This document shows positions 27,815 to 40,574 of a DNA stretch of 64,000 nt, piece after piece. Numbering within the stretch: the stretch's first letter is position 1; each line of letters begins with the position of its first letter. A program made the position numbers and the translations under genes. The stretch is from NCBI GenBank assembly GCA_016200965.1, contig JACQDT010000001.1, positions 3,544 to 67,543 on the forward strand. The letters run 5' to 3'. The DNA comes from Candidatus Azambacteria bacterium. Its GTDB lineage: Bacteria; Patescibacteriota; Minisyncoccia; GWC2-36-17; WO2-46-25. The notes beneath the pieces are model-generated. The model ran no database searches, was not told the origin of the DNA, and saw only the letters and a list, made by a program, of their open reading frames with translations.

Positions 27815-28969
27815 TCAATGGCTTTCATCATGAACGATTACGCCTCCGCCAAGCACTGCATCGTCGTCATACGACGACTGCTCCGCTCTCTGCGTTCGCG
27901 GGTTGCCGTCATACGACGACTGCTCCGCTCTCTGCGTTCGCGGGTTGCCGTCATAAAACACAATGGACTGGCCGGGGGTCACCGCGCGCTGGGGTTCGTC
28001 AAATATCACGTGAAGCGCGGCGTCAACGAAGCATTTCTGCAACGGCTGGCGATATCGGATGCGCGCTTCACAACGTAATGGAAACTGCGGCGCGGTTCCC
28101 GATATCCAACTTACACCCCGCGCAATCAATTCGGTCTTATACAAATCGCCTTCTTTTATGTTTTCCGCAACATACAGCGTGTTATGCGCGAGATCTTTTT
28201 GGGCGACGTAATACGCCGTGCCTCCGCCGGGAGAGCCGATGCCATGACGCTGGCCAATGGTGTAAAACACCGCTCCCTGATGCTTGCCCACCTGCTTTCC
28301 CGCCGCAGTCAGCACCGGCCCCGGCTGGGCGGCGATTTGGCTTTTTAGAAAATCAAACACCTCCAGTTCACCCACGAAGCATACCCCCTGGCTTTCCTTT
28401 CTGTTGGCGTTTGACAAGCCGAATTCCCGCGCGAGCTCGCGCACATGCGACTTAATAAAACCGCCTATGGGAAAAAGCACATGCGCTAATTTTTTTTGTG
28501 TCAGTGTCCACAAAAAATATGACTGGTCTTTGTTCTTGTCCATGCCGGCAAATAACGAGTAGCCGCCAGCAAGTAGTTGAGTGCGCGCATAGTGCCCCGT
28601 TGCAATAAAATCCGCTCCCATTGAAAGCGCGCGGTCAAGAAAAATACCGAACTTGATTTCTTTATTGCACATCACATCGGGATTGGGCGTGATTCCTTCA
28701 CGGTACGAAGAGACCATGTAGTCCACGACTTTCTTTTTGTATTCCTCCTGGACATCCCATGTATAAAAAGGAATGCCAAGCACGGCGGCCGCCTTGCGCG
28801 CCTCTTCCTGGTCCGCGACCCACGGGCACATCGTCTTGTCCTTGAAGAACCGGCTGTCAGACCAGCCCTTCATGAATACGCCCGTAACGTCATATCCTTC
28901 TTTTTTCAGCAATGCCGCCGCGACGGAACTGTCCACGCCGCCGGACATCGCAACGAATATTTTTTGCAT
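27815..28969 (-). CDS. mnmA: tRNA-specific 2-thiouridylase MnmA, carrying two tandem 14-aa repeat insertions near the C-terminus
   Basis: PP-loop AMSGGVDSSVAA, plus the MnmA core and C-terminal beta-barrel. The sequence IVFYDG-[NPRTQRAEQSSYDG x2]-D-AVLGGGVI shows the insert. Confidence 0.85.
   Translation of the reverse strand: MQKIFVAMSGGVDSSVAAALLKKEGYDVTGVFMKGWSDSRFFKDKTMCPWVADQEEARKAAAVLGIPFYTWDVQEEYKKKVVDYMVSSYREGITPNPDVMCNKEIKFGIFLDRALSMGADFIATGHYARTQLLAGGYSLFAGMDKNKDQSYFLWTLTQKKLAHVLFPIGGFIKSHVRELAREFGLSNANRKESQGVCFVGELEVFDFLKSQIAAQPGPVLTAAGKQVGKHQGAVFYTIGQRHGIGSPGGGTAYYVAQKDLAHNTLYVAENIKEGDLYKTELIARGVSWISGTAPQFPLRCEARIRYRQPLQKCFVDAALHVIFDEPQRAVTPGQSIVFYDGNPRTQRAEQSSYDGNPRTQRAEQSSYDDDAVLGGGVIVHDESH
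27866..27949 (+). repeat. two tandem 42-bp intragenic repeat units, copies 2 and 3
   Basis: Two exact consecutive units, followed by a partial gtcata. In frame in mnmA. Confidence 0.9.
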
Positions 28970-29742: not shown

Positions 29743-30285
29743 TTGATGATTTTGGCGTCTTTACTAGCGCATGGAACCATGGCACATGACCCGAAGGAAT
29801 TCATCGACCTGTACGACCGTCACAGCGACGCGGTGTATCGCTTCATATTGTTTAAAGTGAGCGACCGCGAAGCCGCCTGGGATTTGACGCAGGATTGTTT
29901 TACAAAAACGTGGGAATACTGGCGCAGCGAAAAAGGAAGCGTATCCAATCAAAAGGCGTTCCTGTTCACTGTCGCCCGTAATCTTGTCATCGATCACTGG
30001 CGCGCCAGAGCGCGGACGCAGACCGTCAGTTTGGACGTGGACACGATAGATATTGCCGAGAAAGGTAACGGCACGCACGACCGGCTCGTCTTGAAAGATG
30101 AAACGCAATCGGTCATGAAACTCATCGGGAATCTGCCCGAAAGCGACCGCGAGATGCTGACGCTCCGCTACACCGAAGAACTTTCCTTTAAAGAGATCGC
30201 AAAGGTCACGGGAAAAAGCATTATCGCGGCGCGGGTGCACGCCCATCGCGCGCTTGGAAAGCTCAAACGAATGATCACGCCGTAA
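29743..30285 (+). CDS. RNA polymerase sigma factor, ECF (sigma-70 group 4) family
   Basis: Region 2 (DLTQDCFTKTWEYW) and region 4 (LTLRYTEELSFKEIAKVTGKSIIAARVHAHRALGKL). The real start may be the internal MAHDPKEF. Confidence 0.8.
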   Translation: MMILASLLAHGTMAHDPKEFIDLYDRHSDAVYRFILFKVSDREAAWDLTQDCFTKTWEYWRSEKGSVSNQKAFLFTVARNLVIDHWRARARTQTVSLDVDTIDIAEKGNGTHDRLVLKDETQSVMKLIGNLPESDREMLTLRYTEELSFKEIAKVTGKSIIAARVHAHRALGKLKRMITP

Positions 30286-30291
30286 ATAAAA

Positions 30292-31317
30292 ATGAAACAC
30301 CATCTTATCCGCATCCTGCATATCCTCCGCCACATCACGCCCGACGCAAAACAAAAGGCGGAATTTCGCCATGCGCTTGTGTTGCGCGTGCACGCAGATA
30401 CCGCGCACGAAAGAATGTCGCGGCGCGCAAAACCCTCATCCGTATTCTCGTTTTTCCGTCTTGCGCCCACTACGGCGGGCGTGATCGCCGCGGCTGTTAT
30501 CCTCGGAACCGGCGGCGTATCGTTTGCGGCCCAGAACGCGCTCCCGGGAGAACGCCTCTATCCCGTAAAGCTCGCGACGGAAAGAGCGCGCCTTGCCATG
30601 GTTGGCGACAAAGCAGAAAAAACAAAATTACGCCTCACTTTTGCTTCCCGCCGCCTTGATGAGGTGGATAAACTCATAGAAAAAAACGGAAACCAAAACG
30701 TAAACGCCGATGCCGCGCTCGCGCAATACGAGAAGGCGCTCAGCGAGAGCGAAAGCGCGCTTGAAGAAAATCAAGAAAAAGCATCCGAGATAGCGATAGC
30801 GATCAATGATGCCGCGGAGATACACCAGCGCGTCATCCAAAAACTCTCCGATAAGATAGAAAAACTGCCCTCCGCGGCGTCGCTTAAAGAACCCCTTGAA
30901 AATGCGCGGGAAAAAACGGAGGAAAGGGAAAACAGCGCGCTTATCGCCATTGTGTCTGCGACCTCCACGCAACCGGATCTTATTCCGGAAAGATTCGTGA
31001 AAAAATCCCGTGAGAAAGTACAAAAACGGGAACGGAACCTGCGCGAGGCGGCTCTTTCCGTTGAAAAAGCGATGTTAGAAGGCCGGGATGTGAAAGGTGC
31101 TGATGAAAAAATCAAAAACGCTCAATCCATCATCGACCGCGCGAGAGAAGATCTTGATAGAGGGGAAATCCGCGCCTCGCTGGAACAATCAATGGAAGCG
31201 GAGAAAATTACAAAAGAAATAAGAAGGTTTGAACGCAAGCGAGAGAGAGAAAAGGAGCGGGAAGAAAAAGAGACGGAATCTCGACGCAACGAAGATGCTC
31301 TTGATGAGAAGCATTAG
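30292..31317 (+). CDS. putative anti-sigma factor: membrane-spanning, with long charged coiled-coil extracytoplasmic domain (DUF5667-like)
   Basis: Immediately downstream of the ECF sigma gene. One TM helix (VIAAAVILGTGGVSFAA), then about 250 aa rich in E, K and R. Confidence 0.45.
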   Translation: MKHHLIRILHILRHITPDAKQKAEFRHALVLRVHADTAHERMSRRAKPSSVFSFFRLAPTTAGVIAAAVILGTGGVSFAAQNALPGERLYPVKLATERARLAMVGDKAEKTKLRLTFASRRLDEVDKLIEKNGNQNVNADAALAQYEKALSESESALEENQEKASEIAIAINDAAEIHQRVIQKLSDKIEKLPSAASLKEPLENAREKTEERENSALIAIVSATSTQPDLIPERFVKKSREKVQKRERNLREAALSVEKAMLEGRDVKGADEKIKNAQSIIDRAREDLDRGEIRASLEQSMEAEKITKEIRRFERKREREKEREEKETESRRNEDALDEKH

Positions 31318-32414
31318 CCGAATGTGAATGTAAACGCTTCAAGGCCGGGACTTTCCACAATCATTTCGAGTGTGTGCTCACCGTATTCCATATCCGCAAC
31401 GAGCTGATACAGTTCCTCGCCTTGCACAAATTTTGTGCCTTGAGATGTGCCGTCTTTAAAAATCTCAACCGTCACCCCGCCCTTCGCGTTCGCCACGAAA
31501 TAGACATTCTTTGCCTGATAGCGAAAGATAATTTTTGCGCCTGCGCTCCGGTTCTTCGCAAATTCATCCAAAAACTCCCACTCCCCCGTCAGGTACAGAG
31601 TATTCGTTTTGACGCGCTGCGGCTGCTCGAGCGTCTGCACGCCCTGCGTACCCGAATCCCCATTCCCAAGATAGGTGTTGCGCGCGGCGCCGAAATAGAT
31701 TTCGGGACTGCGCTCAAGCGAAAAGTCAACGTCCGCAACGCCCGTCGGTTTTGAAACATCTTTTGCAATTTCTCCCTCTACGCCGAGTACCGTCATGCGC
31801 TCTTCTAAAAGTTTTTGAATTTTCTGCTCCGTCTCTTCGTACGCTCCCTCGCCGGCGTGATCATACACAATATAGCCATCTATATCGATCAAATACTTTC
31901 TCGGCCAGAATCGGTTTTGATACGCATTCCATGTGGAAAAATCGTTATCAAGTACCACCGGATATTTGATTCCCAATCTCTTTGTCGCATCGAGAACATT
32001 TTGATAATTCTTTTCAAACTCAAACTCCGGCGTATGCATGCCGATAATAACGAAACCCTTGTCCTTATATTTTTCGTACCACGCGTTGAGATACGGCGTG
32101 GTCCTTTGGCAATTGATACAACTGTATGTCCAGAAGTCAACGAGAACCACTTTCTTTCCGATGAACTCCCCGATCGTAATCGGCTTTCCATCTGTGTTAA
32201 TAAAGCCATCGGGTGTCGTGATCTCTTTTGCAACCGGATAGCGATTTTGCTTTTCCTGCCTGCCGGCAGATAGGTCTTCTTTATGCACGGCTGTTTTTAC
32301 CTCTACCGTTCCCCCGATTATGGCGCGGGGAGGTTTTTGCGCGTTCAAATACACAATCGCGGCAATAACGACGCCGACAAGAGCGAATAACATTAACGTC
32401 TTTTTCGAAGTCAT
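31314..32414 (-). CDS. TlpA/ResA-like thiol-disulfide oxidoreductase with C-terminal extension
   Basis: N-terminal signal anchor. Thioredoxin fold with WTYSCINCQ (CxxC). Confidence 0.6.
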   Translation of the reverse strand: MTSKKTLMLFALVGVVIAAIVYLNAQKPPRAIIGGTVEVKTAVHKEDLSAGRQEKQNRYPVAKEITTPDGFINTDGKPITIGEFIGKKVVLVDFWTYSCINCQRTTPYLNAWYEKYKDKGFVIIGMHTPEFEFEKNYQNVLDATKRLGIKYPVVLDNDFSTWNAYQNRFWPRKYLIDIDGYIVYDHAGEGAYEETEQKIQKLLEERMTVLGVEGEIAKDVSKPTGVADVDFSLERSPEIYFGAARNTYLGNGDSGTQGVQTLEQPQRVKTNTLYLTGEWEFLDEFAKNRSAGAKIIFRYQAKNVYFVANAKGGVTVEIFKDGTSQGTKFVQGEELYQLVADMEYGEHTLEMIVESPGLEAFTFTFG

Positions 32415-32427
32415 CGGATTAAATGGT

Positions 32428-32500
32428 TTCTTTCTTTACCCCGTTAGTGATCCGCCCTGCCAAAGGCACGGCGTCAGCCGCCTCGGGGCGGCTTATCACT
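32428..32500. repeat. long hairpin overlapping the ccdA 3' end and the ccdA-tlpA intergenic gap
   Basis: ccccgttagtgatccgcc pairs with ggcggcttatcactaacgggg: a 13-bp perfect stem plus a 5-bp extension. Confidence 0.5.
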
Positions 32501-33271
32501 AACGGGGTTTACCGCGGTGGAAGCAAGATAGGAAAGAAACCCGGGGATAAGCGGCAACATACAGGGACTTAAGAATGATCCAACCCCGGCAAGAAACGAA
32601 ACTATGAAGTTAAAAATCGTCAGCGAGCTGATACCCTCGCCGATTGAGGTTACTAAATTCAGAGAAAGAAGAATATCGGTAAGAAACTGAAGATTTGCGA
32701 TACGGGAGAGAGTTCCTGTAAAAACAAACACGCCCATTGCGATGAGCACTGCCCCGAAAAAATACTGAAAGTAGAGAAGCTTCTTGCCCAAACGATTGAT
32801 GAGCGCCTGGGCCTGGTTCGTGAAAAGCCCGACCAAAAGGAATGGAATGCCGATTCCGAGCGTATAGGCGAAAAGCAGGAAAAACGCGCTCGATGCCGCT
32901 GTACTCGCAAGCGCCAAAATTGCGCCGAGCGCCACAGAAACGCACGGCGTCCAGCCAACGGCAAAGGCCGCGCCGAACACAAACGACGTCAGGTAGTGCG
33001 AATGGAACCGGCGCTTGACCGTGACGGTATGGCCGCGCTTCAGAAACGCCGGCGTAAAAAATCCAAGCAGAAAAAATCCGAACAGAATAATGATCACGCC
33101 GCCGATTCGGCCCAGCCATTCCTGAACCGTGTAGGAAGCGCTTGAAAGGACCGTCTGTAGCAGAACGCCGACCAGCGAGAATACGAGTGAAAAGCCCAGC
33201 ACAAAGAAAACGCTTGAGAGGAAAATGCTCCAATCGCGGCCGGGTTTTTCAGAAGACACTATTTGATCCAT
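32474..33271 (-). CDS. ccdA: cytochrome c-type biogenesis protein CcdA (DsbD transmembrane domain)
   Basis: FLAGVGSFLSPCMLPLIPGFLS and a second Cys-containing TM motif. Six or more TM helices. Confidence 0.8.
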   Translation of the reverse strand: MDQIVSSEKPGRDWSIFLSSVFFVLGFSLVFSLVGVLLQTVLSSASYTVQEWLGRIGGVIIILFGFFLLGFFTPAFLKRGHTVTVKRRFHSHYLTSFVFGAAFAVGWTPCVSVALGAILALASTAASSAFFLLFAYTLGIGIPFLLVGLFTNQAQALINRLGKKLLYFQYFFGAVLIAMGVFVFTGTLSRIANLQFLTDILLSLNLVTSIGEGISSLTIFNFIVSFLAGVGSFLSPCMLPLIPGFLSYLASTAVNPVSDKPPRGG

Positions 33272-33280
33272 GGGCTTGGT

Positions 33281-33880
33281 TTATCGAGCAATTGCTTTGT
33301 TAATTTCAGAAAGATACCGATCCTTTGACCATGAATCAGGCGCTTTTAGAATCTGCGTTCCTTTTTTCAGAAACACTTTCGTGTGCTGATAAGGAATGCC
33401 AAACGCCCGCGCAAGATTTTTTTCGTCGGCATCGGTGTCCGAATCGTTGTAGTTGACACGAAAGCCAATCACCTTGTCTGTGGTCAGCTCATTGAACGCA
33501 GACTGCATGACGGGAAACTCAAGCCGGCAAATCGGGCACCAGTTGGCATAGAAATACAGGACGATGAGCTTATCCGACGCTTTTGCCACGTCATAGTCCG
33601 GCTTGTTAAAATCAAGCACAAGCGCAGAAACTCCAGCCAAGATTTCTCCGGAGTATTTCACCATTGTCTCGTTCTTGCTCTCCAACGCTAAAGCTGTGGG
33701 GGACTTCTTTTCCATAGCTTCTCTGGCCATCCGGGCTTTCTCTTGCAAGGTGAAGGCTTTTTGGGATTGGAGAGCATAGAAGGCGGCACCCGCTATCACG
33801 AAGATCAAAACGATAATCGCAAGGTGTGCCAACAGCGCTATCCCCTGTGACGCATTATTCTTTTGCAATTTATTGACCAA
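33281..33880 (-). CDS. membrane-anchored thioredoxin-like protein (WCPIC active site)
   Basis: YFYANWCPICRLEFP thioredoxin motif. Paralogue of the upstream gene. Confidence 0.65.
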   Translation of the reverse strand: MVNKLQKNNASQGIALLAHLAIIVLIFVIAGAAFYALQSQKAFTLQEKARMAREAMEKKSPTALALESKNETMVKYSGEILAGVSALVLDFNKPDYDVAKASDKLIVLYFYANWCPICRLEFPVMQSAFNELTTDKVIGFRVNYNDSDTDADEKNLARAFGIPYQHTKVFLKKGTQILKAPDSWSKDRYLSEINKAIAR

Positions 33881-34619
33881 TCGCTTTGTTTATCTCCGTA
33901 AGGTAGCGTGCCTTATCCCATCCGTCGGGCGCTTTCAGAATTTGCTTTCCACTCTTCAGAAACACTTTCGTGTGCTGATAAGGAACGCCGAACTCGCGCG
34001 CGAGGTCTTTCTCATTGCTGTCGGTTTCGTTGTCGTTGTAACTGACCCGGAAAGCCACCACTTTATCCGTCGTCAGTTCGTTAAACGCCGCCTGCATCTG
34101 TGGGAATTCCGCTTTACAAATCGGGCACCAGTTGGCGTAGAAGTAAAGCACCACCAACTTGTCAGACGCTTTTGCGGCGTCGTAGTCCGGCTTGTTGAAA
34201 TCAAGAAGCGGCGCGGACTTTCCCGCAAGCACCGTGCCGGAGAACTTCAGCATCGCGGCTTCTGGCTTGACCATAGTTCCGTCGGGCTTAATCATTGTTC
34301 CATCGGGTTTGATCATCGTCCCATCAGGTTTCACCATGGTTCCATCTGGCTTAACAATGGTTCCGTCTGGTTTGACCATCGTGCCGTCTGTCTTAACCAT
34401 AGTGCCGTCGGGCTTAACCATTGTGCCGTCGGCTTTGACCACGGTGCCATCCGATAATGTCTTCTCACCTGTGGGCGCTTGCGGCGCTTGCGTGGTTGGG
34501 GCCGGTGACGGCTGTGTACGCGTGGCGAAATATCCGACTCCGGCAATGACCGCTAGAAGAGCAACTATTGCGATAATGATAGGCATCGCAAACCCTTTTT
34601 CTGCATTATTATTTTTCAT
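33870..34619 (-). CDS. membrane-anchored thioredoxin-like protein with nine PDGTMVK heptad repeats
   Basis: YFYANWCPICKAEFP motif. N-terminal signal anchor, then nine consecutive DGT(M/V/I)(V/I)K(P/A/T) heptads. Confidence 0.65.
   Translation of the reverse strand: MKNNNAEKGFAMPIIIAIVALLAVIAGVGYFATRTQPSPAPTTQAPQAPTGEKTLSDGTVVKADGTMVKPDGTMVKTDGTMVKPDGTIVKPDGTMVKPDGTMIKPDGTMIKPDGTMVKPEAAMLKFSGTVLAGKSAPLLDFNKPDYDAAKASDKLVVLYFYANWCPICKAEFPQMQAAFNELTTDKVVAFRVSYNDNETDSNEKDLAREFGVPYQHTKVFLKSGKQILKAPDGWDKARYLTEINKAIGQ
34263..34451 (-). repeat. nine 21-bp tandem repeats encoding the DGTMVKP heptads
   Basis: Direct repeats of ggcttaaccat(a/t)gtgccgtc-like units, visible in the DNA. Confidence 0.8.
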
Positions 34620-34681
34620 AAATGATATGAGTTAATCTTTAATCTGTGACCTTTACTCCAATATACACCGCGCAACAATAA

Positions 34682-34701
34682 ATGTAAAACTTACTTTACA
34701 T
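34682..34701. promoter_or_regulatory. palindromic operator ATGTAAAACTTACTTTACAT overlapping a TTTACA -35 element (minus-strand promoter of the thioredoxin-ccdA operon)
   Basis: Inverted repeat ATGTAAA/TTTACAT. On the minus strand, TTTACA, a 17-nt spacer and TATATT follow. The same architecture recurs at 35382-35401. Confidence 0.5.
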
Positions 34702-34786
34702 ATGCCTGTGGACAAAGCGGTTTCAAGGAAGGAGAAAGAGGCGGCGCGCGCCGCCTCTTCAATCTCCCCGCAATACTTTGTCAGAG

Positions 34787-35311
34787 TTAAAAAGCTCCGG
34801 CAACTGCAATTGCGGCAGGAAGCCCGCCGACCGGAGACGGCGTCAGGCCATTGATAGTGTCTTCAACCAACACCACGACAAGGTTTACACCCGCAGGCCC
34901 GAGGGTTATCGGGGATCCAGCGTTTGGACCCGTGGTAAATCCCGTGGCGCGAAACCGCATCTCGCCGTTGCCGCCATCGGAAAAGATAATACTGCCCTCG
35001 TTCGCCAGCGCCCCCAAAAAGGCCTTATCGCCGGTATCTGTGCGCACGAACCAAACACCGTAGAAGTGTCCCGAACCAAACAGTTGCGGAGGCAACTTTT
35101 CCGCTTTCACTTTCCCGGTCAATACCGTTCCTTCAAGCGCAATTTTTGCTTCTCCTGTTGCAGCCGGAGCAGCACCTCCCGGGACTGAAGCAAGATCCAC
35201 ATGAATCCCTGCCGCATAGGTGATCCCGAAAAGCAATCCAAACAGCGCGATCGAGGTTCCAAGAAATATCACTCCATAGGACGAATTCTTTATTTGTTGC
35301 GTCAAGTACAT
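34787..35311 (-). CDS. secreted hypothetical protein (Gly/Ala-rich, beta-rich)
   Basis: Signal-anchor N-terminus. No recognisable catalytic motif. Preceded by the duplicated operator/promoter. Confidence 0.4.
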   Translation of the reverse strand: MYLTQQIKNSSYGVIFLGTSIALFGLLFGITYAAGIHVDLASVPGGAAPAATGEAKIALEGTVLTGKVKAEKLPPQLFGSGHFYGVWFVRTDTGDKAFLGALANEGSIIFSDGGNGEMRFRATGFTTGPNAGSPITLGPAGVNLVVVLVEDTINGLTPSPVGGLPAAIAVAGAF

Positions 35312-35381
35312 AGCCTATAGTGTTTTAGTAAGTTACCAATACTCGACCTTTACTAAAACAGTGTATACACAACCACAACAA

Positions 35382-35401
35382 ATGTAAAGTTGACTTTACA
35401 T
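35382..35401. promoter_or_regulatory. second copy of the palindromic operator ATGTAAAGTTGACTTTACAT, with downstream conserved CCTTGTGGATAA box
   Basis: Shares a roughly 70-nt conserved architecture with 34650-34720: cctttact ... tatacac ... ATGTAAAG..CTTTACAT ... CCTGTGGA.AA. Confidence 0.5.
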
Positions 35402-35423
35402 TCCTTGTGGATAACTTTACACT

Positions 35424-35669
35424 TTATTCTGCCAGGGCACTGTCCAATTTCTGTTTATCAAATCCCAGGATAGTAACTCTTGATCCATCGTCTTTGGTCA
35501 TGACCGTAAACGGCACTCCCATTTGTCCTGACTCGGCTATCATTTCTTCAATGGCTTTCGGATCCTTGTCAACATAGATTTCCTCAAACGGTATTCCCTT
35601 GGACCCTAGGTATTCCGCTTCCATTTTGCAGTACGGACGGGTTGTTGTTTTGTATATTTTTATTGTCAT
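35424..35669 (-). CDS. glutaredoxin-fold small protein with single active-site Cys (RPYC)
   Basis: 81 aa. KIYKTTTRPYCKMEAEYL ... GVPFTV glutaredoxin/NrdH-like fold, with the first Cys of CPYC replaced by Arg. Confidence 0.55.
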   Translation of the reverse strand: MTIKIYKTTTRPYCKMEAEYLGSKGIPFEEIYVDKDPKAIEEMIAESGQMGVPFTVMTKDDGSRVTILGFDKQKLDSALAE

Positions 35670-35691
35670 ATAAAAAGGTTGGTTCTTTTTG

Positions 35692-36057
35692 TTAATATTT
35701 CACTCGACCGTAAAGTAACCCGACAATTTTTGCCAAAATCATTACCCCTAATGTAACCGCGAGCCAAGCATCAAGTTCGTGTCTAAAGCTTTGAATGATA
35801 ATAGCGGTTACCAGCGTAGCCGTGCCGGCCAGAAAAGCAATGCGACCCGCCATCATTTTATGAAGACCTTCTCTCTCGTCTTTTGCGTTCTCTCTCCAAA
35901 TGAAGCTTGCAAACAGACTGAAGAGCACCACCAATCCCAGCACCATCATCATCAATAAAATGGGGGGCATCCAAAGCTCAAAGGGATTGAGGAATAAAAC
36001 GAGCAATGCGATCAGTACCCCAGACACAATGATTTCTTGCAAAAAGTTATTTTTCAT
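35692..36057 (-). CDS. small 3-4 TM membrane protein, co-transcribed with the XRE regulator
   Basis: Hydrophobic 121-aa ORF overlapping the stop of the upstream HTH gene. Classic pairing of an XRE regulator with a small membrane protein. Confidence 0.4.
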
Positions 36058-36295
36058 ATTTGATAGAGAAAATTTCTTCTACAGATATTGGTTTTTTTCC
36101 ACCGGAGGCGGATCCGCCTTCGGCGGAGAAAAACTTTGCCATTTTAAGCGCCAAAAGCACCAAGGGAGTGTAATTCCCCTTCTCAATCGCGATAATTGTC
36201 TGGCGCGTTACGCCAACCGCATGGGCCAACTCTTCTTGGGTGATGCCGGTTTTTGTTCGTAATTCGTACACCTGATTCTTGATAATTTCTTTCAT
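36047..36295 (-). CDS. XRE-family helix-turn-helix transcriptional regulator
   Basis: [45 protein letters not shown] is a YozG/Cro-C1-type HTH. The C-terminus contains the in-frame palindromic element that encodes [10 protein letters not shown]. Confidence 0.75.
36099..36126. repeat. 28-bp GC-rich near-perfect palindrome ccaccggaggcggatccgccttcggcgg, in frame inside the XRE regulator gene
   Basis: Self-complementary around a central GGATCC. Second copy at 38018-38045. Confidence 0.8.
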
Positions 36296-36358
36296 ACATA
36301 TACTGATATGGTGCAGTATACATACTGAATGGTCAGAATGTCAAACATGCTTTACATC

Positions 36359-36387
36359 TTGACAGCAGATATTGGCAAAACTATACT
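36359..36387 (+). promoter_or_regulatory. sigma70-type promoter for arsR (TTGACA, 17-bp spacer, TATACT) embedded in the inverted repeat TGTCAA-N14-TTGACA
   Basis: Consensus -35 and near-consensus -10 about 35 nt upstream of the ArsR start. The -35 forms an inverted repeat with TGTCAA at 36339. Confidence 0.5.
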
Positions 36388-36420
36388 ATTAAGTAGTTTC
36401 ATAATTACTTAAGTATCACT

Positions 36421-36744
36421 ATGTTAACCAAAAAGCAAATAACCGAAGTCAAAGCGGGGCTGGGGACCAACACCGCCGGCTTTCCCTTGGTATTTGCGGC
36501 GCTCGGCGATTCCCGCCGATTCCATATCTTCAGATTACTTATGAAACATCATGATATCTGTGTGACCGATGTCGCCCGCGTGTTTGGCATGAGCGTCTCC
36601 GCCGCCTCGCAACAGCTGCGCGTGCTTGAACGGGTCGGCCTCGTGCTAAAAACGCGGATGGGCCAGATGGTGTGCTATGAGATCAATCAAGAAAATATCA
36701 TCGCGAAACAATTGGTCGCATTATTAAAAAAGTCAGATAAATGA
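36421..36744 (+). CDS. ArsR/SmtB-family metalloregulatory transcriptional repressor
   Basis: HIFRLLMKHHDICVTDVARVFGMSVSAASQQLRVLERVGLV winged-helix HTH typical of ArsR. Confidence 0.8.
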   Translation: MLTKKQITEVKAGLGTNTAGFPLVFAALGDSRRFHIFRLLMKHHDICVTDVARVFGMSVSAASQQLRVLERVGLVLKTRMGQMVCYEINQENIIAKQLVALLKKSDK

Positions 36745-37121
36745 ATAATTTTTTCAAAAAGACGGCAATAAGGTTCGCGCCGATTTTAGGCGCAGGAGCC
36801 ATAGGGGTCTGCCCGCTTTGTTGGATTGGCTCGGCATCGCTTCTCACCTATCTGGGGCTCGGTGCGCTTATCCCGTATTGGCGCTGGATCGGTTTTAGCC
36901 TCATCGCCCTGGGAGCGGCCGGGTTCCTCCTTGATTATCGCTCCCACAGAAATCCTTACCCGCTTATATCTCTTGCCCTCGGGGCGATGCTTCTCTATGT
37001 CGGCCGGTATGTATTTTTGAGCACGTGGGGCGCATGGCAAATTTGGGGGCCAGGTGCAGCGCTGATCATTGCAGCCGTTGTGTATAACAAATGGCTCTTT
37101 AGAAAACCGAGGACGATATGA
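36741..37121 (+). CDS. small membrane protein with CPLC motif in first TM helix (MerT/MerF-like metal-binding?)
   Basis: 4-TM 126-aa ORF overlapping the arsR stop. GVCPLCW motif at the TM1 entrance. Confidence 0.35.
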   Translation: MNNFFKKTAIRFAPILGAGAIGVCPLCWIGSASLLTYLGLGALIPYWRWIGFSLIALGAAGFLLDYRSHRNPYPLISLALGAMLLYVGRYVFLSTWGAWQIWGPGAALIIAAVVYNKWLFRKPRTI

Positions 37122-38143
37122 ATCTCCCAAAGCCAGCATCCATAATCATAGGGGGATTGTTCATTGCAGTCTTGGGATATTCCGTTTTGTCGCGCACTCT
37201 GTTCCAGAACGACTTTCCCATGCCGCAAGGCGGAGAAACCAAAAAAGAAACAAAGGGAATTATGATAACGGACGGCGTGAAACATAGCGTGCCGCTTGAT
37301 GAAATCATCGGAGGCGGCCCTTCAAAAGACGGCATACCGTCCATTGATAAGCCAAAGTTTGTTGTTCTTGCGGAAGCCAACTCGTTCTTGAAGGACTCCG
37401 AGCCGGGCATTGCGTTAGAGATGGGCGGCGTGAGCCGATTTTATCCGTTCCAAATTCTCGTGTGGCATGAAATTGTGAATGACACGATTGGCGGCACGCG
37501 CGTGCTGGTAACCTATTGCCCTTTGTGTCTTTCGGGAATTGTCTTTGATCCGGCAGTAAATGGCGAGCGCGTCGAATTCGGCACTTCGGGTAAATTATGG
37601 AATTCCAATTTAGTCATGTATGACCGCAAGACCGATTCGTTATGGTCGCAAATTTTGGGTGAAGCGATTGTCGGAGAGATGACGGGCATGAAGCTCGCGG
37701 TTCTCCCGTCCGACATGATCCGCTTCGGAGATTTCAAAAAATTGCATCCTGAGGGCAGCGTTCTTTCCCGCGACACGGGTACAACGCGCTTCTACGGCCA
37801 AGACCCGTACGGCGATTACTACACGACCCCGGGAACTTATTTCCCGGTCGGCAAAAAGGATGCCCGTCTTAATGAAAAAGATTTTGTCCTTGGCGTTGTC
37901 GTCAATGGAAAAGCAAAAGCATATTGGCCGGAAGCGGTGAAAAAAGCCGGCGAGGTAACGGATCGGTTTGAAGGAAAAGATATCGTTGCGCGATACGAAA
38001 AAGAGGTTGACGCGGTGCGTCTTTTTTCCGCCGAAGGCGGATCCGCCTCTGGCGGAGAGAAGAAATTAGTACGCATCAATTCATTCGGCGCGTTCTGGTT
38101 TTCCTGGGTTGCCGCGCATCCGGAGACGGAGTTGTACAAATGA
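37118..38143 (+). CDS. DUF3179-family secreted protein
   Basis: N-terminal signal anchor. YCPLC ... WNSNLVMYDRKTDSLWSQ pattern characteristic of DUF3179. The C-terminus contains the in-frame palindromic element encoding [10 protein letters not shown]. Confidence 0.55.
   Translation: MNLPKPASIIIGGLFIAVLGYSVLSRTLFQNDFPMPQGGETKKETKGIMITDGVKHSVPLDEIIGGGPSKDGIPSIDKPKFVVLAEANSFLKDSEPGIALEMGGVSRFYPFQILVWHEIVNDTIGGTRVLVTYCPLCLSGIVFDPAVNGERVEFGTSGKLWNSNLVMYDRKTDSLWSQILGEAIVGEMTGMKLAVLPSDMIRFGDFKKLHPEGSVLSRDTGTTRFYGQDPYGDYYTTPGTYFPVGKKDARLNEKDFVLGVVVNGKAKAYWPEAVKKAGEVTDRFEGKDIVARYEKEVDAVRLFSAEGGSASGGEKKLVRINSFGAFWFSWVAAHPETELYK
38018..38045. repeat. 28-bp GC-rich palindrome ccgccgaaggcggatccgcctctggcgg, in frame inside the DUF3179 gene
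   Basis: Near-identical to the element at 36099-36126 in reverse-complement-equivalent form. Encodes the same [10 protein letters not shown] peptide. Confidence 0.8.
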
Positions 38144-38147
38144 GAAT

Positions 38148-38393
38148 ATGAGAATCATCATTTACACAAAAACGGGGTGTCCGTGGGCGCGAGAGGTGAT
38201 GGATTTTCTGACGAAGCGTGGCATCGTGTTCGAAGAGCGGAACATGCTTGAACATCCGGAGTATCAAAAAGAAGCGCTGGATAAGTCGGGTCAATGGAAA
38301 TCCCCCACGTTGGACATTGACGGGCACATCCTTCCCGATTCGGATGCGGCGCAGGTTGAGGAATATCTTGATAAAAAGGTCGAAAAAAATTAA
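38148..38393 (+). CDS. glutaredoxin-fold small protein with single active-site Cys (CPWA)
   Basis: MRIIIYTKTGCPWAREVMDFL ... GQWKSPTLDIDG glutaredoxin fold, with the second Cys of CPYC replaced by Ala. Start trimmed to the internal Met. Confidence 0.55.
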   Translation: MRIIIYTKTGCPWAREVMDFLTKRGIVFEERNMLEHPEYQKEALDKSGQWKSPTLDIDGHILPDSDAAQVEEYLDKKVEKN

Positions 38394-38420
38394 TAAAATA
38401 ACTTAATCAAACAATACAAT

Positions 38421-38582
38421 ATGGATCAAAAAGACAGCAAAACAACCTGCATGGCATGTGCCTGCCCATGCGAAATGCATAAAGAGCACAATCATCCGGT
38501 TGAAAAGAAAGAGGCAAAGGTGTGCACAATGTGCGGTCACGAGCACAAAGCCGATGGCTCGTGCGATTGCGGCTGCAAGTAA
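38421..38582 (+). CDS. 53-aa Cys/His-rich metallothionein-like peptide (not in ORF track)
   Basis: MDQKDSKTTCMACACPCEMHKEHNHPVEKKEAKVCTMCGHEHKADGSCDCGCK has 9 Cys and 5 His in CxC/CxxC clusters. Sits in the metal/redox island. Confidence 0.5.
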   Translation: MDQKDSKTTCMACACPCEMHKEHNHPVEKKEAKVCTMCGHEHKADGSCDCGCK

Positions 38583-38591
38583 TCACCGATC

Positions 38592-39116
38592 ATGAATAGG
38601 GTTTTACCCATCATTATCGGAGTTTTGATTGTCGGGGGCGTGGGTTGGCTGGTAGTTTCCAGCCGCAACGCCCCCGAACGATCAAACCAGCAAGCGGAGT
38701 CAGAGAAAGCGCCGGATTTTAATCTCAAAGATTATAGTGGCAATACAGTGAGGATTGCGGATTTTCAGGGCAAACCGCTGGTGATAAACTCCTGGGCGGC
38801 ATGGTGCTCATTCTGCCGCAAAGAGCTCGTTGATTTTGTAACGGTTCAGAAAGAATTCGGCGACCGAGTCATTATTATTGCGGTTGACCGCGCCGAATCG
38901 CTCACCGTGGCAAAAAAATACACCGATGAACTCGGCGTAACCAATGGAATGTTGTTCTTGCTTGACCCTACCGATCCTTTTTTTCAATCTATCGGCGGGT
39001 TTTCAATGCCGGAAACAATTTTTGCTGATGCGAAAGGCACTATCGTATTCCATAAAAGAGGACCGATGAATGTTCAGGAAATGCGCGAGAAAATTCAACA
39101 GCTTTTATCGCGATAG
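38592..39116 (+). CDS. TlpA/ResA-like thiol-disulfide oxidoreductase
   Basis: Signal anchor plus thioredoxin fold with WAAWCSFCRKE (CxxC). Confidence 0.7.
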   Translation: MNRVLPIIIGVLIVGGVGWLVVSSRNAPERSNQQAESEKAPDFNLKDYSGNTVRIADFQGKPLVINSWAAWCSFCRKELVDFVTVQKEFGDRVIIIAVDRAESLTVAKKYTDELGVTNGMLFLLDPTDPFFQSIGGFSMPETIFADAKGTIVFHKRGPMNVQEMREKIQQLLSR

Positions 39117-39120
39117 ATAA

Positions 39121-39876
39121 ATGGACATTTCTCTCATCATCCCCGCGTTCATTGCCGGCGTTCTCACATTCCTTGCGCCATGCACACTTCCCTTGGTGCC
39201 GGGTTATCTGGGATTTATCAGCGGCGTTTCCATCAATGACCTCGAAGATCCGCAAAAATCCGCATCAGCTCGCAGAAAAATTTTTTTGAATGGACTTTTG
39301 TTTGTTGTCGGTTTCAGTTTTATTTTTATACTGCTTGGCAGCCTTTTTGGTCTGGGCGGCTCCGCTCTTGTTCACTATCGGATTTGGCTCTCGCGAATCG
39401 GCGGTATTTTCGTAATACTTTTTGGGCTTTTTATGATCGGAGTTTTGCGGCTGCCATTTTTGAATGTTGAAAAAAATATCAGAGCAATTATGGCGTTGAA
39501 GCCGGGCAATCCGGCAAGTTCTCTCATTTTCGGAGCAACATTTGCTTTTGGCTGGACCCCCTGCGTGGGACCTATTCTTGGTTCAATCCTGACGCTTGCC
39601 GCGGCGTCTGCAACAGTCGGCCAAGGAGCCTTTCTTCTTTCTATTTTCTCATTTGGCCTTGCGGCGCCCTTTCTCCTTATCGCCGCGGGTATCGGTTCCG
39701 CGTCTTCCTACATCACGAAGTTGAGCGGGTACCTTACTGTTGTTTCGGTGATCGGAGGGATATTCCTCATTTTCCTCGGCACTTTGCTTCTGACCAATAA
39801 GTTTGGCGTATGGATTGCATACTTCTACCAATGGTTCAGTTTTATAAACTATGATAGTTTGTTATATTACTTGTAA
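39121..39876 (+). CDS. ccdA: cytochrome c-type biogenesis protein CcdA, second copy
   Basis: FLAPCTLPLVPGYLGFISG and GWTPCVGPILGSIL motifs. Paired with the upstream TlpA-like gene. Confidence 0.8.
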   Translation: MDISLIIPAFIAGVLTFLAPCTLPLVPGYLGFISGVSINDLEDPQKSASARRKIFLNGLLFVVGFSFIFILLGSLFGLGGSALVHYRIWLSRIGGIFVILFGLFMIGVLRLPFLNVEKNIRAIMALKPGNPASSLIFGATFAFGWTPCVGPILGSILTLAAASATVGQGAFLLSIFSFGLAAPFLLIAAGIGSASSYITKLSGYLTVVSVIGGIFLIFLGTLLLTNKFGVWIAYFYQWFSFINYDSLLYYL

Positions 39877-39878
39877 TT

Positions 39879-40052
39879 ATGGTTAGGGTCATACAACAAA
39901 ACGAAAAAATACTATACCAGTGTGGGGAGTGTGGTTTCCACTATAAAGATCAAACACAAGCGGAAAAATGTGAGGCGTGGTGCAAAGAGCATCACAGTTG
40001 CAACATTGAGATCATCGCTCACGCAGTAGAAAATACGAAAAACAAGCAGTAG
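39879..40052 (+). CDS. 57-aa putative zinc-ribbon protein
   Basis: MVRVIQQNEKILYQCGECGFHYKDQTQAEKCEAWCKEHHSC has a CxxC...CxxxC arrangement. Starts 2 nt after the ccdA stop. Confidence 0.35.
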   Translation: MVRVIQQNEKILYQCGECGFHYKDQTQAEKCEAWCKEHHSCNIEIIAHAVENTKNKQ

Positions 40053-40064
40053 GTTCTCCTAAAA

Positions 40065-40574
40065 CTATTCAACGACGAGCTTCCCCACCATCCCCTGCTG
40101 GCGATGCTGGCCGACACTGCAATAATATTCGAAGGTGCCCGCCTTATCGGCGGTGAATTCCACGCTTGAGGACTTCCCTGCCTCAACCTGCGGTGCCTGC
40201 GCGTTGAACCCGTCCACCACCCAATCATGCGGCCATCCGCCCGCGTTGGTGAAATTAATCCTCACTTTATCGCCTTTTTTTACCCTGATCTCCGACGGGG
40301 TGAACGAGAAATTCTGCCCGCTGACACTGAACGTCTTCACTGCTCCCATCATACCCGCGCCCATCATCATTGAACCATCCGGCATCATGTGCGTGCCGAC
40401 GCCGCTTTCTTTCATCATATTCCCCATATCATGCGCAACGCTTCCTGGCTCAACGGCACCGCCTGATGTTATCGGCTTTTGAACGGGCTGCGGCAATGCC
40501 GCGGAACTAAAGTAATATATCCCTCCGGCAACTATCACCCCCGACATAACAAGCGCAAAAATCCCTTTTGACAT
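40065..40574 (-). CDS. cupredoxin (plastocyanin/azurin-like blue copper protein) with Met/His-rich N-terminal region
   Basis: Type-1 Cu ligands: H in GWPHDW, and C/H/M in YYCSVGQHRQQGM. Met-rich HDMGNMMKESGVGTHMMPDGSMMMGAGMMG segment. Signal anchor. Confidence 0.7.
   Translation of the reverse strand: MSKGIFALVMSGVIVAGGIYYFSSAALPQPVQKPITSGGAVEPGSVAHDMGNMMKESGVGTHMMPDGSMMMGAGMMGAVKTFSVSGQNFSFTPSEIRVKKGDKVRINFTNAGGWPHDWVVDGFNAQAPQVEAGKSSSVEFTADKAGTFEYYCSVGQHRQQGMVGKLVVE

Follow-up and report, generated by a model that had tools for sequence, protein, structure and literature searches.

Two divergent operons, lying back-to-back and each carrying a CcdA gene, probably constitute the Patescibacteria version of a CcdA/DsbD-type reductive pathway that supplies envelope thiol enzymes, and the CcdA of one of them (32474-33271) is an exact circular permutant in which the first transmembrane helix, TM1, is now C-terminal. 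Apart from this permuted CcdA and a 53-aa Cys/His-rich protein that has no family, the locus appears mostly ordinary. It belongs to a MAG of an uncultured groundwater Candidatus Azambacteria (Patescibacteria/CPR) and was analysed within a 64-kb stretch of DNA, referred to here as the window. The genes are given below in operon order, with the evidence for each assignment in brackets.

Operon A:
36047-36295, minus strand: XRE/HTH_3 regulator, first gene (Pfam HTH_3)
35692-36057, minus strand: 121-aa membrane protein, conserved XRE partner (synteny)
35424-35669, minus strand: YruB-type glutaredoxin-like protein, cytoplasmic, active site RPYC (Pfam Glutaredoxin)
34787-35311, minus strand: exported or anchored 174-aa protein, lineage-specific to operon A here (no family)
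33870-34619, minus strand: membrane-anchored thioredoxin-like protein (WCPIC), paralogue B (Pfam Thioredoxin and DUF6799)
33281-33880, minus strand: membrane-anchored thioredoxin-like protein (WCPIC), paralogue A (Pfam Thioredoxin/AhpC-TSA)
32474-33271, minus strand: circularly permuted CcdA, DsbD_TM (BLASTP, Pfam, phmmer, AF2, Foldseek)
32495-32605, minus strand: relocated TM1' segment, aa 223-259, FLSPCMLPLIPGFLSYL, now C-terminal in the permuted CcdA (BLASTP, phmmer)
31314-32414, minus strand: DipZ-C-like reductase, membrane-anchored, last gene, active site CINC (Pfam Redoxin and Thioredoxin_10)

Operon B:
36421-36744, plus strand: ArsR-family regulator, first gene (Pfam HTH_5)
36741-37121, plus strand: 126-aa membrane protein with CPLC in the first helix, weakly MerC-like (Pfam, synteny)
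37118-38143, plus strand: membrane-anchored DUF3179 protein, YCPLC (Pfam DUF3179, E 5e-91)
38148-38393, plus strand: monothiol glutaredoxin-like protein, cytoplasmic, CPWA (Pfam Glutaredoxin)
38421-38582, plus strand: 53-aa Cys/His-rich cytoplasmic protein (24 homologues, fixed synteny, dN/dS)
38592-39116, plus strand: TlpA/ResA-like reductase, membrane-anchored, WCSFC (Pfam Redoxin/AhpC-TSA)
39121-39876, plus strand: canonical CcdA, TM1 Cys in APC and TM4 Cys in WTPC (Pfam DsbD_TM)
39879-40052, plus strand: 57-aa DUF7128 zinc-ribbon-like protein (Pfam, synteny)

A 125-bp control region is common to both operons, each of which has one regulator, and according to the ORF coordinates the intergenic gaps or overlaps do not exceed 27 nt throughout operon B and are short for most, not all, genes of operon A. 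ORF calls and Pfam place all genes listed in the preliminary description at or near the positions it gave, and the Pfam domains bear out its thiol-redox cluster with two CcdA/TlpA-type modules. Its term "island" does not hold in the sense of horizontal transfer, as GC (0.47-0.51 across the region) is not distinct; this is instead a conserved gene cluster. The order XRE-membrane protein-glutaredoxin-(DUF7128)-thioredoxin-CcdA-DipZ-C is also found in L011, L013-L018, L023, L025, L032 and L038, and the order ArsR-...-DUF3179-...-Cys/His-rich protein-TlpA-CcdA-DUF7128 in L001, L003-L006 and L052, the two modules being adjacent or fused into one in L001, L003, L009, L017 and L025. As other CPR genomes show these gene orders at more than 20 independent loci, the clustering is above chance.

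The helices of the permuted CcdA follow the order TM2-3-4-5-6-TM1', with redox cysteines C110 (WTPC) and C237 (SPC). BLASTP against CcdA2 aligns residues 8-185 with 42-225 and 223-259 with 7-43, the Pfam profile is matched from 33 to 215 and then, by the C-terminus, on positions 5-35, and phmmer pairs residues 223-256 of the protein with 6-39 of 5vkv and 18-191 with 41-206. The canonical CcdA of operon B covers the DsbD_TM profile unbroken (4-215). The AF2 model of the permuted protein is a helical bundle of moderate confidence (pLDDT 81.6) whose best Foldseek match is again 5vkv. Residues S235, P236, C237, L239 and P243 are invariant across 32 permuted homologues and, since both catalytic cysteines are kept, the protein is presumed functional. 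The CcdA gene had been recognised previously and its permutation overlooked; no earlier report of a circularly permuted CcdA was found in the literature searched.

That the permutation stems from misassembly or faulty gene calling, or marks a decaying pseudogene, is hardly credible and already contradicted. The NCBI annotation is inconsistent ("sulfite exporter TauE/SafE" or CcdA) and the partner glutaredoxin is mutated in this species, but the permuted order is shared by hundreds of independent assemblies, every one of the 120 best database matches (66-100% identity; Azam-, Taylor-, Kaiser- and Sungbacteria) runs collinear with it, neither Cys motif varies in the alignment, a second, 99%-identical MAG keeps the permuted gene and a helical bundle is predicted. 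Furthermore, among the 150 best 50%-cluster representatives the permuted order occurs in at least 14, some of them from MAGs that bear the labels "archaeon" and "Dehalococcoidia", and these clusters are diverse (34-47% identical).

Canonical-order CcdA orthologues, 55-59% identical, fill the same slot of operon A in L001, L016, L017, L032 and L038. In a neighbour-joining tree built on the TM2-6 core (181 columns; deep branches weak), the CPR permuted clade received a bootstrap of 100% and was sister to these canonical operon-A orthologues with 63% support, P0275 (permuted) and P0222 (canonical) were paired at 100%, and monophyly of all permuted sequences was obtained in none of 200 replicates. 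Judged from this evidence, permuted CcdA is conserved across the CPR and originated at least twice. In both permuted lineages the TM6-TM1' linker aligns with the canonical C-terminal tail and then with the canonical N-terminus, and the permutant of operon A would most likely have arisen by tandem duplication, fusion and then end-trimming. Canonical CcdA-DipZ-C fusions exist (P0173, P0180, P0181), therefore the canonical C-terminus faces outside; both termini of the permuted CcdA are predicted to be cytoplasmic.

In the proposed pathway, electrons from a cytoplasmic thioredoxin-fold donor would cross via the CcdA cysteine pair, the donor being, we infer, the operon-encoded YruB-type glutaredoxin-like protein, reduced in turn by thioredoxin reductase. 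They would then reach anchored extracytoplasmic thioredoxin-fold reductases (the DipZ-C-like protein and the two WCPIC thioredoxins in operon A, the TlpA-like protein in operon B), which would hold the cysteines of envelope proteins reduced. This direction of electron flow, with its donors and substrates, is a model; as read from the sequences, an N-terminal hydrophobic anchor is present in the DipZ-C-like reductase, both thioredoxins, the TlpA-like, DUF3179 and cupredoxin proteins, and lacking in both glutaredoxins, the 53-aa protein and DUF7128. Operon A is probably a split DipZ: its last gene always lies after the CcdA gene in related loci, and the product matches M. tuberculosis DipZ (2hyx/5cyy) over residues 55-366 (phmmer E about 1e-59). 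A candidate substrate is DUF3179, whose C134-P-L-C137 is invariant among orthologues and is probably redox-active, because the family is counted among the UxxC/T selenoprotein families (PMC9312934). Across its full 64 kb the window has no gene for thioredoxin reductase, thioredoxin, MsrA/B, DsbA or SOD, so that the donor and substrates are not defined locally; a thioredoxin-reductase-like gene lies within operon B of L004, L005 and L052.

The putative donor of operon A lacks the N-terminal (nucleophilic) cysteine here, and this dedicated glutaredoxin step is probably broken or rewired in this species. The protein scores 69 bits against TIGR02196, below cut-off, and the Arg codon of RPYC (CGT, 35637-35639) is a single transition from Cys TGT. 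The substitution recurs in three more independent assemblies of this species and is therefore real; by comparison with the related loci it is private to the species: both cysteines are kept in 40 of the 40 fetched (39 CPYC/CSWC, one CSYC). The CPWA protein, whose true ATG is at 38148 and not 38109, falls in a conserved monothiol clade with the active site C-[PGHA]-W-[AGRT] in 21 homologues; in other loci the gene stands alone beside Msr genes, and in L052 it adjoins a normal dithiol CGYC glutaredoxin. The two proteins had been proposed to form a complementary split relay, an idea that finds no support on either side: the RPYC state is species-private, members of the CPWA clade are found with no partner of that kind, and the two genes here lie in different operons.

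The 53-aa ORF had been suggested as a metallothionein gene. It is a real gene, its position upstream of TlpA-CcdA being fixed in related loci and its dN/dS 0.02-0.14 where dS is not saturated; on sequence evidence it is conserved under purifying selection and lies outside every described family, with no match in Pfam, NCBIfam or PDB. The protein has nine Cys, five His and no aromatic residues, with a core module CxxCGHEHx3Gx-CxCxC; the Cys pattern is invariant across the 24 homologues, which are modular, with one or two modules. As the AF2 fold is of low confidence (pLDDT 58), metal binding is argued from composition. The metallothionein assignment thus survives in part: the composition is metallothionein-like and the operon is headed by ArsR, but the protein belongs to no known metallothionein family, and it is most likely a small metal-binding protein, either metallothionein-like or of a zinc-knuckle type.

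Spelled out, the reading in the preliminary description combines this peptide, as a Cu/Zn metallothionein, with the split or heterodimeric relay and the P1B ATPase at 48388, as metal exporter, into copper homeostasis. A further gene bears on this:
40065-40574, minus strand: type-1 cupredoxin, membrane-anchored, with a linker rich in Met and His (Pfam Cupredoxin_1/Copper-bind)
Its ligands H...C...H...M are legible in the sequence; the Met/His-rich stretch exists, but it lies ahead of the domain, at residues about 47-78, and is not the tail described. The adjoining cupredoxin, the metallothionein-like composition of the peptide and its ArsR-operon setting, and the ATPase motifs (DKTGT, HP, a CPx-like motif in TM6 and an N-terminus rich in His and Met) all favour copper, as does L008, where genes for DsbA, a cupredoxin and an HMA-bearing P-type ATPase lie 5-9 kb upstream of operon A. 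We nevertheless consider this reading distinctly improbable, since the relay lacks support, the cupredoxin gene is convergent with operon B and not part of it, with no orthologue adjoining the cluster in related loci, and the ATPase lies 8 kb off, beyond five unrelated genes including those for a surface protein and a helicase.

It is rather unlikely that operon B serves mainly in soft-metal (Hg/Cd/Zn/As-type) or reactive-sulfur detoxification, in the manner of SmtB-SmtA or of mer and BigR-type operons, where an ArsR-family thiol sensor would govern an importer of MerC/MerT type, a Cys-rich sink in the cytoplasm and thiol reductases. ArsR leads the operon everywhere (eight loci), but its two invariant cysteines, C47 and C85, match no characterised metal-site motif in the alignment, which also counts against copper. 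The CPLC membrane protein has an 80%-identical orthologue in L001/L002 and a Pfam MerT protein at the equivalent place in L005, but its MerC match is under threshold (24.8 bits, cut-off 27.6), and MerA, MerP and ArsB/C are absent. Operon-B relatives also carry genes for MerT, DsrE, DoxX, a phosphatase-fold protein and a pyridine-nucleotide disulfide reductase, the first four of which would be compatible with a role in metal or sulfur stress as well, and the Cys/His-rich protein is modular like metallothioneins; the constant core of the operon, however, is TlpA-CcdA-DUF3179, a disulfide-reduction module. The classical CcdA and ResA role, in which both modules would serve cytochrome c maturation (System II), is suggested by the database annotation "cytochrome c biogenesis protein CcdA" and by ResA being among the structural relatives of the thioredoxin-fold partners. 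It is very improbable, given that none of the more than 20 loci has a ResB/ResC-type or haem-handling neighbour gene, that the CcdA partners are DipZ-like and DUF3179, and that CPR bacteria, to our knowledge, generally lack respiratory chains. As the phylum of Candidatus Azambacteria, so far as we know, is generally also without c-type cytochromes, the role would lie in maintaining the redox state of the envelope and not in cytochrome maturation.

Among the remaining genes of the proposed envelope reductive pathway, the WCPIC paralogues share 74-75% DNA identity. The linker of paralogue B consists of DGTMVKP heptads, encoded by 21-nt tandem repeats (34225-34472) that vary in number (291 aa in a 99%-identical strain versus 249 aa here), and its orthologue is found in operon A of related loci. 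The 121-aa membrane protein has no significant Pfam/NCBIfam family, and its orthologues adjoin XRE in at least 13 loci; the 174-aa exported protein has no Pfam or NCBIfam match and, by tblastn against other loci, matches only in the conspecific L175-L177. In operon B, orthologues of the TlpA/ResA-like reductase occur in eight loci, and those of the canonical CcdA are 62-83% identical in operon B of other loci. The 57-aa protein scores just under the DUF7128 cut-off (24.3 bits, cut-off 25.7), and its homologues, found beside CcdA genes of either operon type at more than 10 loci, are a recurrent companion of these.

The XRE and DUF3179 genes were correctly listed before, but it was overlooked that a 30-nt palindromic double-hairpin element is inserted in-frame in both, at 36098-36127 (10 residues; four orthologues lack it) and at 38027-38056 (likewise missing from orthologues). 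A second repeat, of 42 nt, was overlooked too and also lies inside genes within the window. The 30-nt element itself is found in MAGs of many phyla.

ORF listing together with Pfam and NCBIfam scans confirmed the presence of every gene named in the preliminary description, which had read this part of the window as a copper and thiol-redox island; the thiol-redox cluster and the reality of a small Cys-rich gene hold up, while the copper island and a proposed glutaredoxin relay turned out to be wrong or unproven. Proteins of a Candidatus Azambacteria MAG match the 53-aa ORF and CcdA1 with 100% identity, which places the window in a Patescibacteria/CPR bacterium. The genes form two divergent units, operon A on the minus strand and operon B on the plus strand, with 125 bp between them (36296-36420) and with intergenic gaps of 27 nt or less within operon B.

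Genes of the two divergent units, each in order of transcription
36047-36295, minus, operon A: XRE regulator
minus, operon A: 121-aa membrane protein
35424-35669, minus, operon A: glutaredoxin-like protein with an RPYC active site
minus, operon A: 174-aa exported protein, no family
minus, operon A: two WCPIC thioredoxin-like paralogues, DNA identity about 75%
32474-33271, minus, operon A: CcdA1
31314-32414, minus, operon A (last gene): Redoxin and Thioredoxin_10 protein, DipZ-C-like
36421-36744, plus, operon B (first gene): ArsR regulator
plus, operon B: CPLC membrane protein, MerC match under threshold
plus, operon B: DUF3179 protein
38148 (true start) to 38393, plus, operon B: glutaredoxin-like protein with a CPWA active site
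plus, operon B: 53-aa Cys/His-rich ORF
plus, operon B: TlpA-like Redoxin
plus, operon B: canonical CcdA2
39879-40052, plus, operon B (last gene): DUF7128 protein

As read from the sequences, N-terminal hydrophobic anchors are carried by the thioredoxin-fold proteins, DUF3179 and a neighbouring cupredoxin, and are absent from both glutaredoxins, the 53-aa protein and DUF7128. Homologous loci (L001 and so on) fetched via homologues and mapped by tblastn establish both units as conserved CPR operons: the order XRE, membrane protein, glutaredoxin, (DUF7128), thioredoxin, CcdA, DipZ-C-like recurs in at least 11 metagenomic loci, and the order ArsR, (glutaredoxin), (Redoxin), DUF3179, further genes, Cys-rich protein, TlpA, CcdA, DUF7128 in L001, L003-L006 and L052, with DoxX, MerT, a phosphatase-fold protein and a thioredoxin-reductase-like flavoprotein as optional members of operon B. 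In L001, L003, L009, L017 and L025 the two units adjoin or are merged. A horizontally acquired "island" finds no support, there being no compositional shift and the GC content being unremarkable. Genes for local donors or substrates (TrxR, Msr, SOD, DsbA, DoxX, MerT) were sought across the window and none was found, and Rfam yielded only chance matches to structured RNAs or riboswitches in the region. The cluster is recognisable as a reductive pathway of the CcdA/TlpA/DipZ type, which is already a known kind of system; CPR bacteria are host-attached and generally lack respiration, and what the cluster mainly adds is how they may keep surface cysteines reduced.

Two minor features of operon A may be mentioned here. 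The linker of the second WCPIC thioredoxin (33870-34619) contains a tandem repeat of the heptad DGTMVKP (21 nt; 34225-34472), the copy number of which differs between 99.2%-identical strains, the protein having 249 aa here and 291 aa in GCA_016178885.1 (L175 4051-4926). The end of the operon overlaps by 4 nt with a convergent pair of genes (29743-31317, plus strand) encoding an ECF-type sigma factor and then a DUF5667 protein, possibly an anti-sigma factor.

The valuable part of the region, and one that is worth experimental follow-up, is a circularly permuted, recurrently evolved CcdA. Both CcdA proteins match DsbD_TM (PF02683) with scores of 57.0 bits (CcdA1) and 55.3 bits (CcdA2) at a gathering cut-off of 27.1, and the canonical TM1-TM6 helix order is present in CcdA2 and absent in CcdA1, whose Pfam match starts only at profile position 33 and which has a TM1-like motif, FLSPCMLPLIPGFLSYL, at its C-terminus. 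In BLASTP, residues 8-185 of CcdA1 correspond to 42-225 of CcdA2 and residues 223-259 to 7-43 (E 4e-10); phmmer against the solved Thermus thermophilus CcdA (5VKV) pairs CcdA1 223-256 with 6-39 and 18-191 with 41-206; and when CcdA1 was artificially re-permuted, Pfam profile positions 5-215 were matched in one piece. These three results make CcdA1 an exact circular permutant, in which TM1 has been moved behind TM6 and is connected to it by a linker of about 30 residues.

The fold of the T. thermophilus CcdA/DsbD-beta family, with xPC in TM1 and WxPC in TM4, is shared by both CcdAs: the membrane cysteines of CcdA1 are C237 (SPC) and C110 (WTPC), both motifs being invariant in 32 permuted homologues, and the motifs of CcdA2 are APC and WTPC. 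The AF2 model of CcdA1 is a confident helical bundle (pLDDT 81.6, pTM 0.77), for which 5VKV is the best PDB match. CcdA1 aligns with 5VKV over all six helices but differs from it in having TM1 after TM6 and both termini predicted to be cytoplasmic; its charges would fit the positive-inside rule if this topology is assumed, with the 186-213 linker outside.

Collinearity with the permuted order extends to all of the 120 best database matches (Azam-, Taylor-, Kaiser- and Sungbacteria; 66-100% identity). When representatives of 50%-identity clusters were searched exhaustively, at least 14 of the best 150 proved to stand for permuted clusters, with identities of 34-47%, and some of these distant clusters are labelled "archaeon" or "Dehalococcoidia". 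Databases name the permuted proteins as ordinary CcdA or as TauE/SafE, an inconsistency that the permutation explains. No description of a permuted CcdA or DsbD was found in the literature searched, and to our knowledge natural circular permutants among multi-pass membrane proteins are rare.

With regard to the origin of the permutation, a canonical-order CcdA, 55-59% identical, fills the same operon slot in L001, L016, L017, L032 and L038. Neighbour-joining on the TM2-6 core (57 sequences and 181 columns, with 200 bootstraps) gave the CPR permuted clade 100% support and placed it as sister to these canonical operon-A orthologues with 63% support; another permuted homologue, P0275, pairs with the canonical P0222 (65% identical) with 100% support. 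All permutants were united in 0 of the 200 replicates, which, together with the pairing of P0275 and P0222, indicates at least two independent permutation events, as far as the tree of this core can tell. The TM6-TM1' linker of either lineage aligns first with the C-terminal tail of canonical CcdA and then with its N-terminus, the pattern left by a tandem duplication whose copies were fused and trimmed at the ends. Duplication intermediates with seven or twelve TM helices were also considered; the long matches examined (P0276, P0307, P0211, P0268 and P0287) were all permuted proteins with loop insertions or thioredoxin-domain fusions, and none was an intermediate.

CcdA consists of two inverted three-helix repeats, each with a single catalytic cysteine, and its presumed mode of action is alternating access. 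The permutant, in which the first repeat is split and rejoined via an outside linker, offers a natural test of which connections such a mechanism requires. Canonical, permuted and fused (DipZ) forms appear to alternate in one operon slot, which would make this slot a worked example of how permutations evolve.

The fused form is exemplified by three close homologues (P0173, P0180 and P0181), in which a canonical CcdA is joined to the DipZ-C part. In the window this part is encoded by 31314-32414, the product of which combines an extracytoplasmic thioredoxin-fold CxxC domain with a Thioredoxin_10 domain (Pfam Redoxin and Thioredoxin_10, 96 bits) and matches the periplasmic thioredoxin plus C-terminal domain of Mycobacterium tuberculosis DipZ (Rv2874; 2HYX/5CYY) at E ~1e-59; in related loci its gene always lies directly after the CcdA gene. 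The DipZ match and the fused homologues lead us to regard operon A as a split DipZ. In M. tuberculosis the membrane and soluble halves are in one polypeptide, whereas here they are separate genes (32474-33271 and 31314-32414), and the soluble half is anchored by an N-terminal segment of its own. Because of its permutation, the membrane half could not be fused at its C-terminus to a domain lying outside.

In Streptococcus pneumoniae, CcdA1-Etrx1 and CcdA2-Etrx2 feed MsrAB2, and Bacillus subtilis has CcdA-ResA/StoA. These systems resemble the present one, as it is proposed to work, in having two lines of CcdA paralogues that each supply thioredoxin-fold reductases anchored at the surface, and in being concerned with envelope repair, and Etrx structures (4hqz, 2yp6, 4hqs) are among the PDB matches. 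Unlike the pneumococcal system, the window contains no Msr gene; unlike both the Etrx and ResA systems, the partners here include DUF3179, the DipZ-C-like protein and small Cys-rich cytoplasmic proteins, and the regulators of the operons are of the XRE and ArsR families. DUF3179 is among the families listed as UxxC/T selenoproteins (PMC9312934); this implies that its invariant CPLC is redox-active and makes the protein a candidate for a substrate, or a partner, of the TlpA-like reductase.

The two glutaredoxin-like proteins were described in the preliminary description as complementary halves of a split relay, RPYC having kept only the C-terminal and CPWA only the N-terminal cysteine. Both are small glutaredoxin-fold proteins that match Pfam Glutaredoxin and score best against the YruB/NrdH type (TIGR02196, TIGR02194), though below the cut-offs (for TIGR02196, 69.1 bits for RPYC and 40.0 bits for CPWA against 88.55). 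In contrast with this dithiol type, which has CxxC at the N-terminus of helix 1, RPYC lacks the N-terminal cysteine and the CPWA clade the C-terminal one; nor is the latter a class II monothiol glutaredoxin, since CGFS is absent and its active site is C-[PGHA]-W-[AGRT] in the 21 sequences of the clade. The operon-A orthologue retains both cysteines in all 40 related loci fetched (39 with CPYC or CSWC, one with CSYC), and the CGT codon of RPYC is one transition away from TGT. A sequencing or assembly error is contradicted by the identical protein in three other assemblies, that of a 99.2%-identical MAG and two from independent read sets; the allele is genuine and is confined to the Azambacteria species of the window. 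Members of the CPWA clade, for their part, are conserved in other contexts: alone beside MsrA/MsrB genes in L051 and L053, and in L052 within operon B together with a normal CGYC glutaredoxin. With RPYC confined to one species and the CPWA clade found elsewhere, the complementarity would be a coincidence, and on these alignments we reject the split relay. In most genomes the operon-A glutaredoxin plausibly serves as a cytoplasmic electron donor dedicated to CcdA, a step that has probably been disabled or rewired in the species of the window.

MsrB and/or MsrA genes lie within 8 kb of the monothiol clade in 3 of 3 contexts (L051 619-1029, L052 3611-5674, L053 7158-7903), which hints that this clade serves methionine sulfoxide reductases. 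Its CPWG and CPWR members have an extra cysteine before the cis-proline (KCPT), which may be an alternative resolving cysteine; the CPWA members have KSPT.

The 53-aa ORF of operon B, for which a bacterial metallothionein had been suggested, is a real conserved gene. Across its 24 homologues the cysteines are fully or almost fully conserved. Non-synonymous divergence (dN) amounts to 0.007-0.2, with synonymous divergence ranging from 0.34 to saturation (dN/dS 0.02-0.14 where computable), and the position of the gene in related loci is always just upstream of the TlpA-CcdA pair. With 9 Cys (17%), 5 His (9%) and no F, W or Y, it falls within the generic definition of a metallothionein as a small, Cys-rich protein without aromatics and with conserved CxC/CxxC clusters. 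A core module, CxxCGHEHx3GxCxCxC, occurs once in L052, twice in L005, and in the window together with an N-terminal module, CxxCxCPCEMHKEHNH. It has in common with SmtA/BmtA (Metallothio_Pro, with the ArsR-family regulator SmtB) and MymT the small size, CxC/CxxC clusters and modular duplication, and with SmtA/BmtA also the location under an ArsR-family regulator, but it has its own cysteine pattern, CxxCxCxC...CxxCGHEH...CxCxC, and is always found within a TlpA-CcdA operon. Membership of a described family, SmtA/BmtA (PF02069) included, found no support: there was no match in Pfam at E<=0.01 or in NCBIfam at E<=0.1, and a profile search of the PDB returned only a rubredoxin knuckle at E 0.7. 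The AF2 model (pLDDT 58, no secondary structure) is compatible with metal-dependent folding and is no evidence for it. "Metallothionein-like" is therefore a fair term for the composition and the ArsR context, metal binding being a prediction from the sequence, and the protein defines a small new Cys/His-rich family tied to CcdA operons.

A second conserved small Cys-rich companion of CcdA, predicted to be cytoplasmic from its lack of an N-terminal anchor, is the zinc-ribbon-like DUF7128 protein, which adjoins CcdA genes in both operon types, sometimes with two copies per locus (39879-40052 in the window; 7711-7869 and 9256-9375 in L005; also L011, L014, L015, L025 and L038).

The proposal of copper homeostasis fared less well. 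The cupredoxin does have an intact type-1 site, with His, Cys, His and Met ligands readable as WPH...YYCSVGQH...GM (Cupredoxin_1 50.3 bits, Copper-bind 46.2 bits), but its gene runs convergently to operon B, and the other loci have no counterpart in synteny with it. The P-type ATPase gene at 48388, assigned to the same physiology, is 8 kb distant, with LTD/PKD, SpaA-like, LysM and DEAD-helicase genes in between, and is neither co-operonic nor syntenic, a P-type ATPase being found within 10 kb of the cluster only in L008 among the related loci. The ArsR protein is recognised by its HTH_5 winged helix (33.9 bits against 22) and has no recognisable metal site: comparison by eye with motifs of the literature found no alpha3 CVC, alpha3N or alpha5 His/Asp/Glu site and no alpha5 His motif. 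Only two cysteines, C47 (CVTDVA) and C85 (VCYE), are invariant in the alignment of its family; a possible role is that of a thiol-disulfide switch, in place of metal sensing. MerC (PF03203) matches the CPLC membrane protein, with CPLC in the first helix, at 24.8 bits against a cut-off of 27.6. The ATPase itself (48388-50517, minus strand) has DKTGT and HP motifs, a His/Met-rich N-terminus and no HMA domain, and its TM6 motif, ACPDALGLATP, contains an unusual CPD rather than CPC or CPH.

Two genes of the cluster carry a 30-nt double hairpin, TCCGCC-NNN-GGCGGA-TCCGCC-NNN-GGCGGA: the XRE gene at 36098-36127 and the DUF3179 gene at 38027-38056. The insertion is in-frame and absent from the XRE and DUF3179 orthologues; the element is also present in L001 (10082-10111 and 11647-11676), including its 53-aa gene, and missing from the 53-aa gene of the near-identical L003. 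It comprises ten codons that give the same S-A-x-G-G-S-A-x-G-G peptide on either strand, and could thus settle in coding genes as a harmless linker. In GTDB species representatives at least 119 stretches were found (L054-L172), compared with about 0.002-0.004 expected by chance, and the copies have unrelated flanks, fixed stems and variable loops. Among the matches listed, the hosts belong to Patescibacteria, Omnitrophota, Lentisphaerae, Kiritimatiellae, Planctomycetes, Chloroflexota and others, all genomes are MAGs, including long-read assemblies, and out of 130 sites, 58 fall within long open frames that read the SAxGGSAxGG phase, with 11 in the other two phases.

A phage origin is disfavoured, only 2 matches having been found in IMG/VR, and the literature searched held no relevant paper on this sequence or on palindromic in-frame elements in Patescibacteria. 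The closest parallels are Rickettsia palindromic elements (RPEs), selfish palindromic repeats of about 100-150 nt located in-frame in protein genes, and REP/BIME elements. Like RPEs, the 30-nt element is palindromic, preserves the frame and adds a short, presumably tolerated peptide; unlike RPEs, it has 30 nt, encodes a Gly/Ser/Ala-rich peptide on either strand and occurs in MAGs of many phyla instead of one genus. We know of no associated transposase. The element may belong to a mobile mini-element spread across more than ten phyla of uncultured bacteria, and should palindromic insertions of this in-frame type prove mobile between phyla, they would represent a new kind of selfish DNA that shapes the proteins of these organisms. 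The insertions merit a study of their own. That the region documents two apparently undescribed phenomena, namely a CcdA permuted at least twice in nature yet still functional and a cross-phylum in-frame insertion element of 30 nt, perhaps mobile, is put forward here tentatively, as possible rather than probable.

Another repeat, a 42-nt unit (GACGGCAACCCGCGAACGCAGAGAGCGGAGCAGTCGTCGTAT on the coding strand), occurs in eight copies inside six genes of the window (19116-19154, 27866-27946 with two copies, 41998-42036, 49015-49095 with two copies, 52408-52458 and 63381-63419). It had no match in IMG/VR and none in the literature searched, and neither repeat had a match in Rfam. The host genes encode an MnmA-like protein, an LTD/PKD surface protein, the P-type ATPase, a UvrD-like helicase and two other proteins. 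Seven copies, two tandem pairs among them, lie in five minus-strand genes in a single phase and are read as DGNPRTQRAEQSSY; the eighth, in the plus-strand gene of the UvrD-like helicase, is read on the other strand and gives a different peptide. Two of the copies fall within the nucleotide-binding domain of the P-type ATPase.
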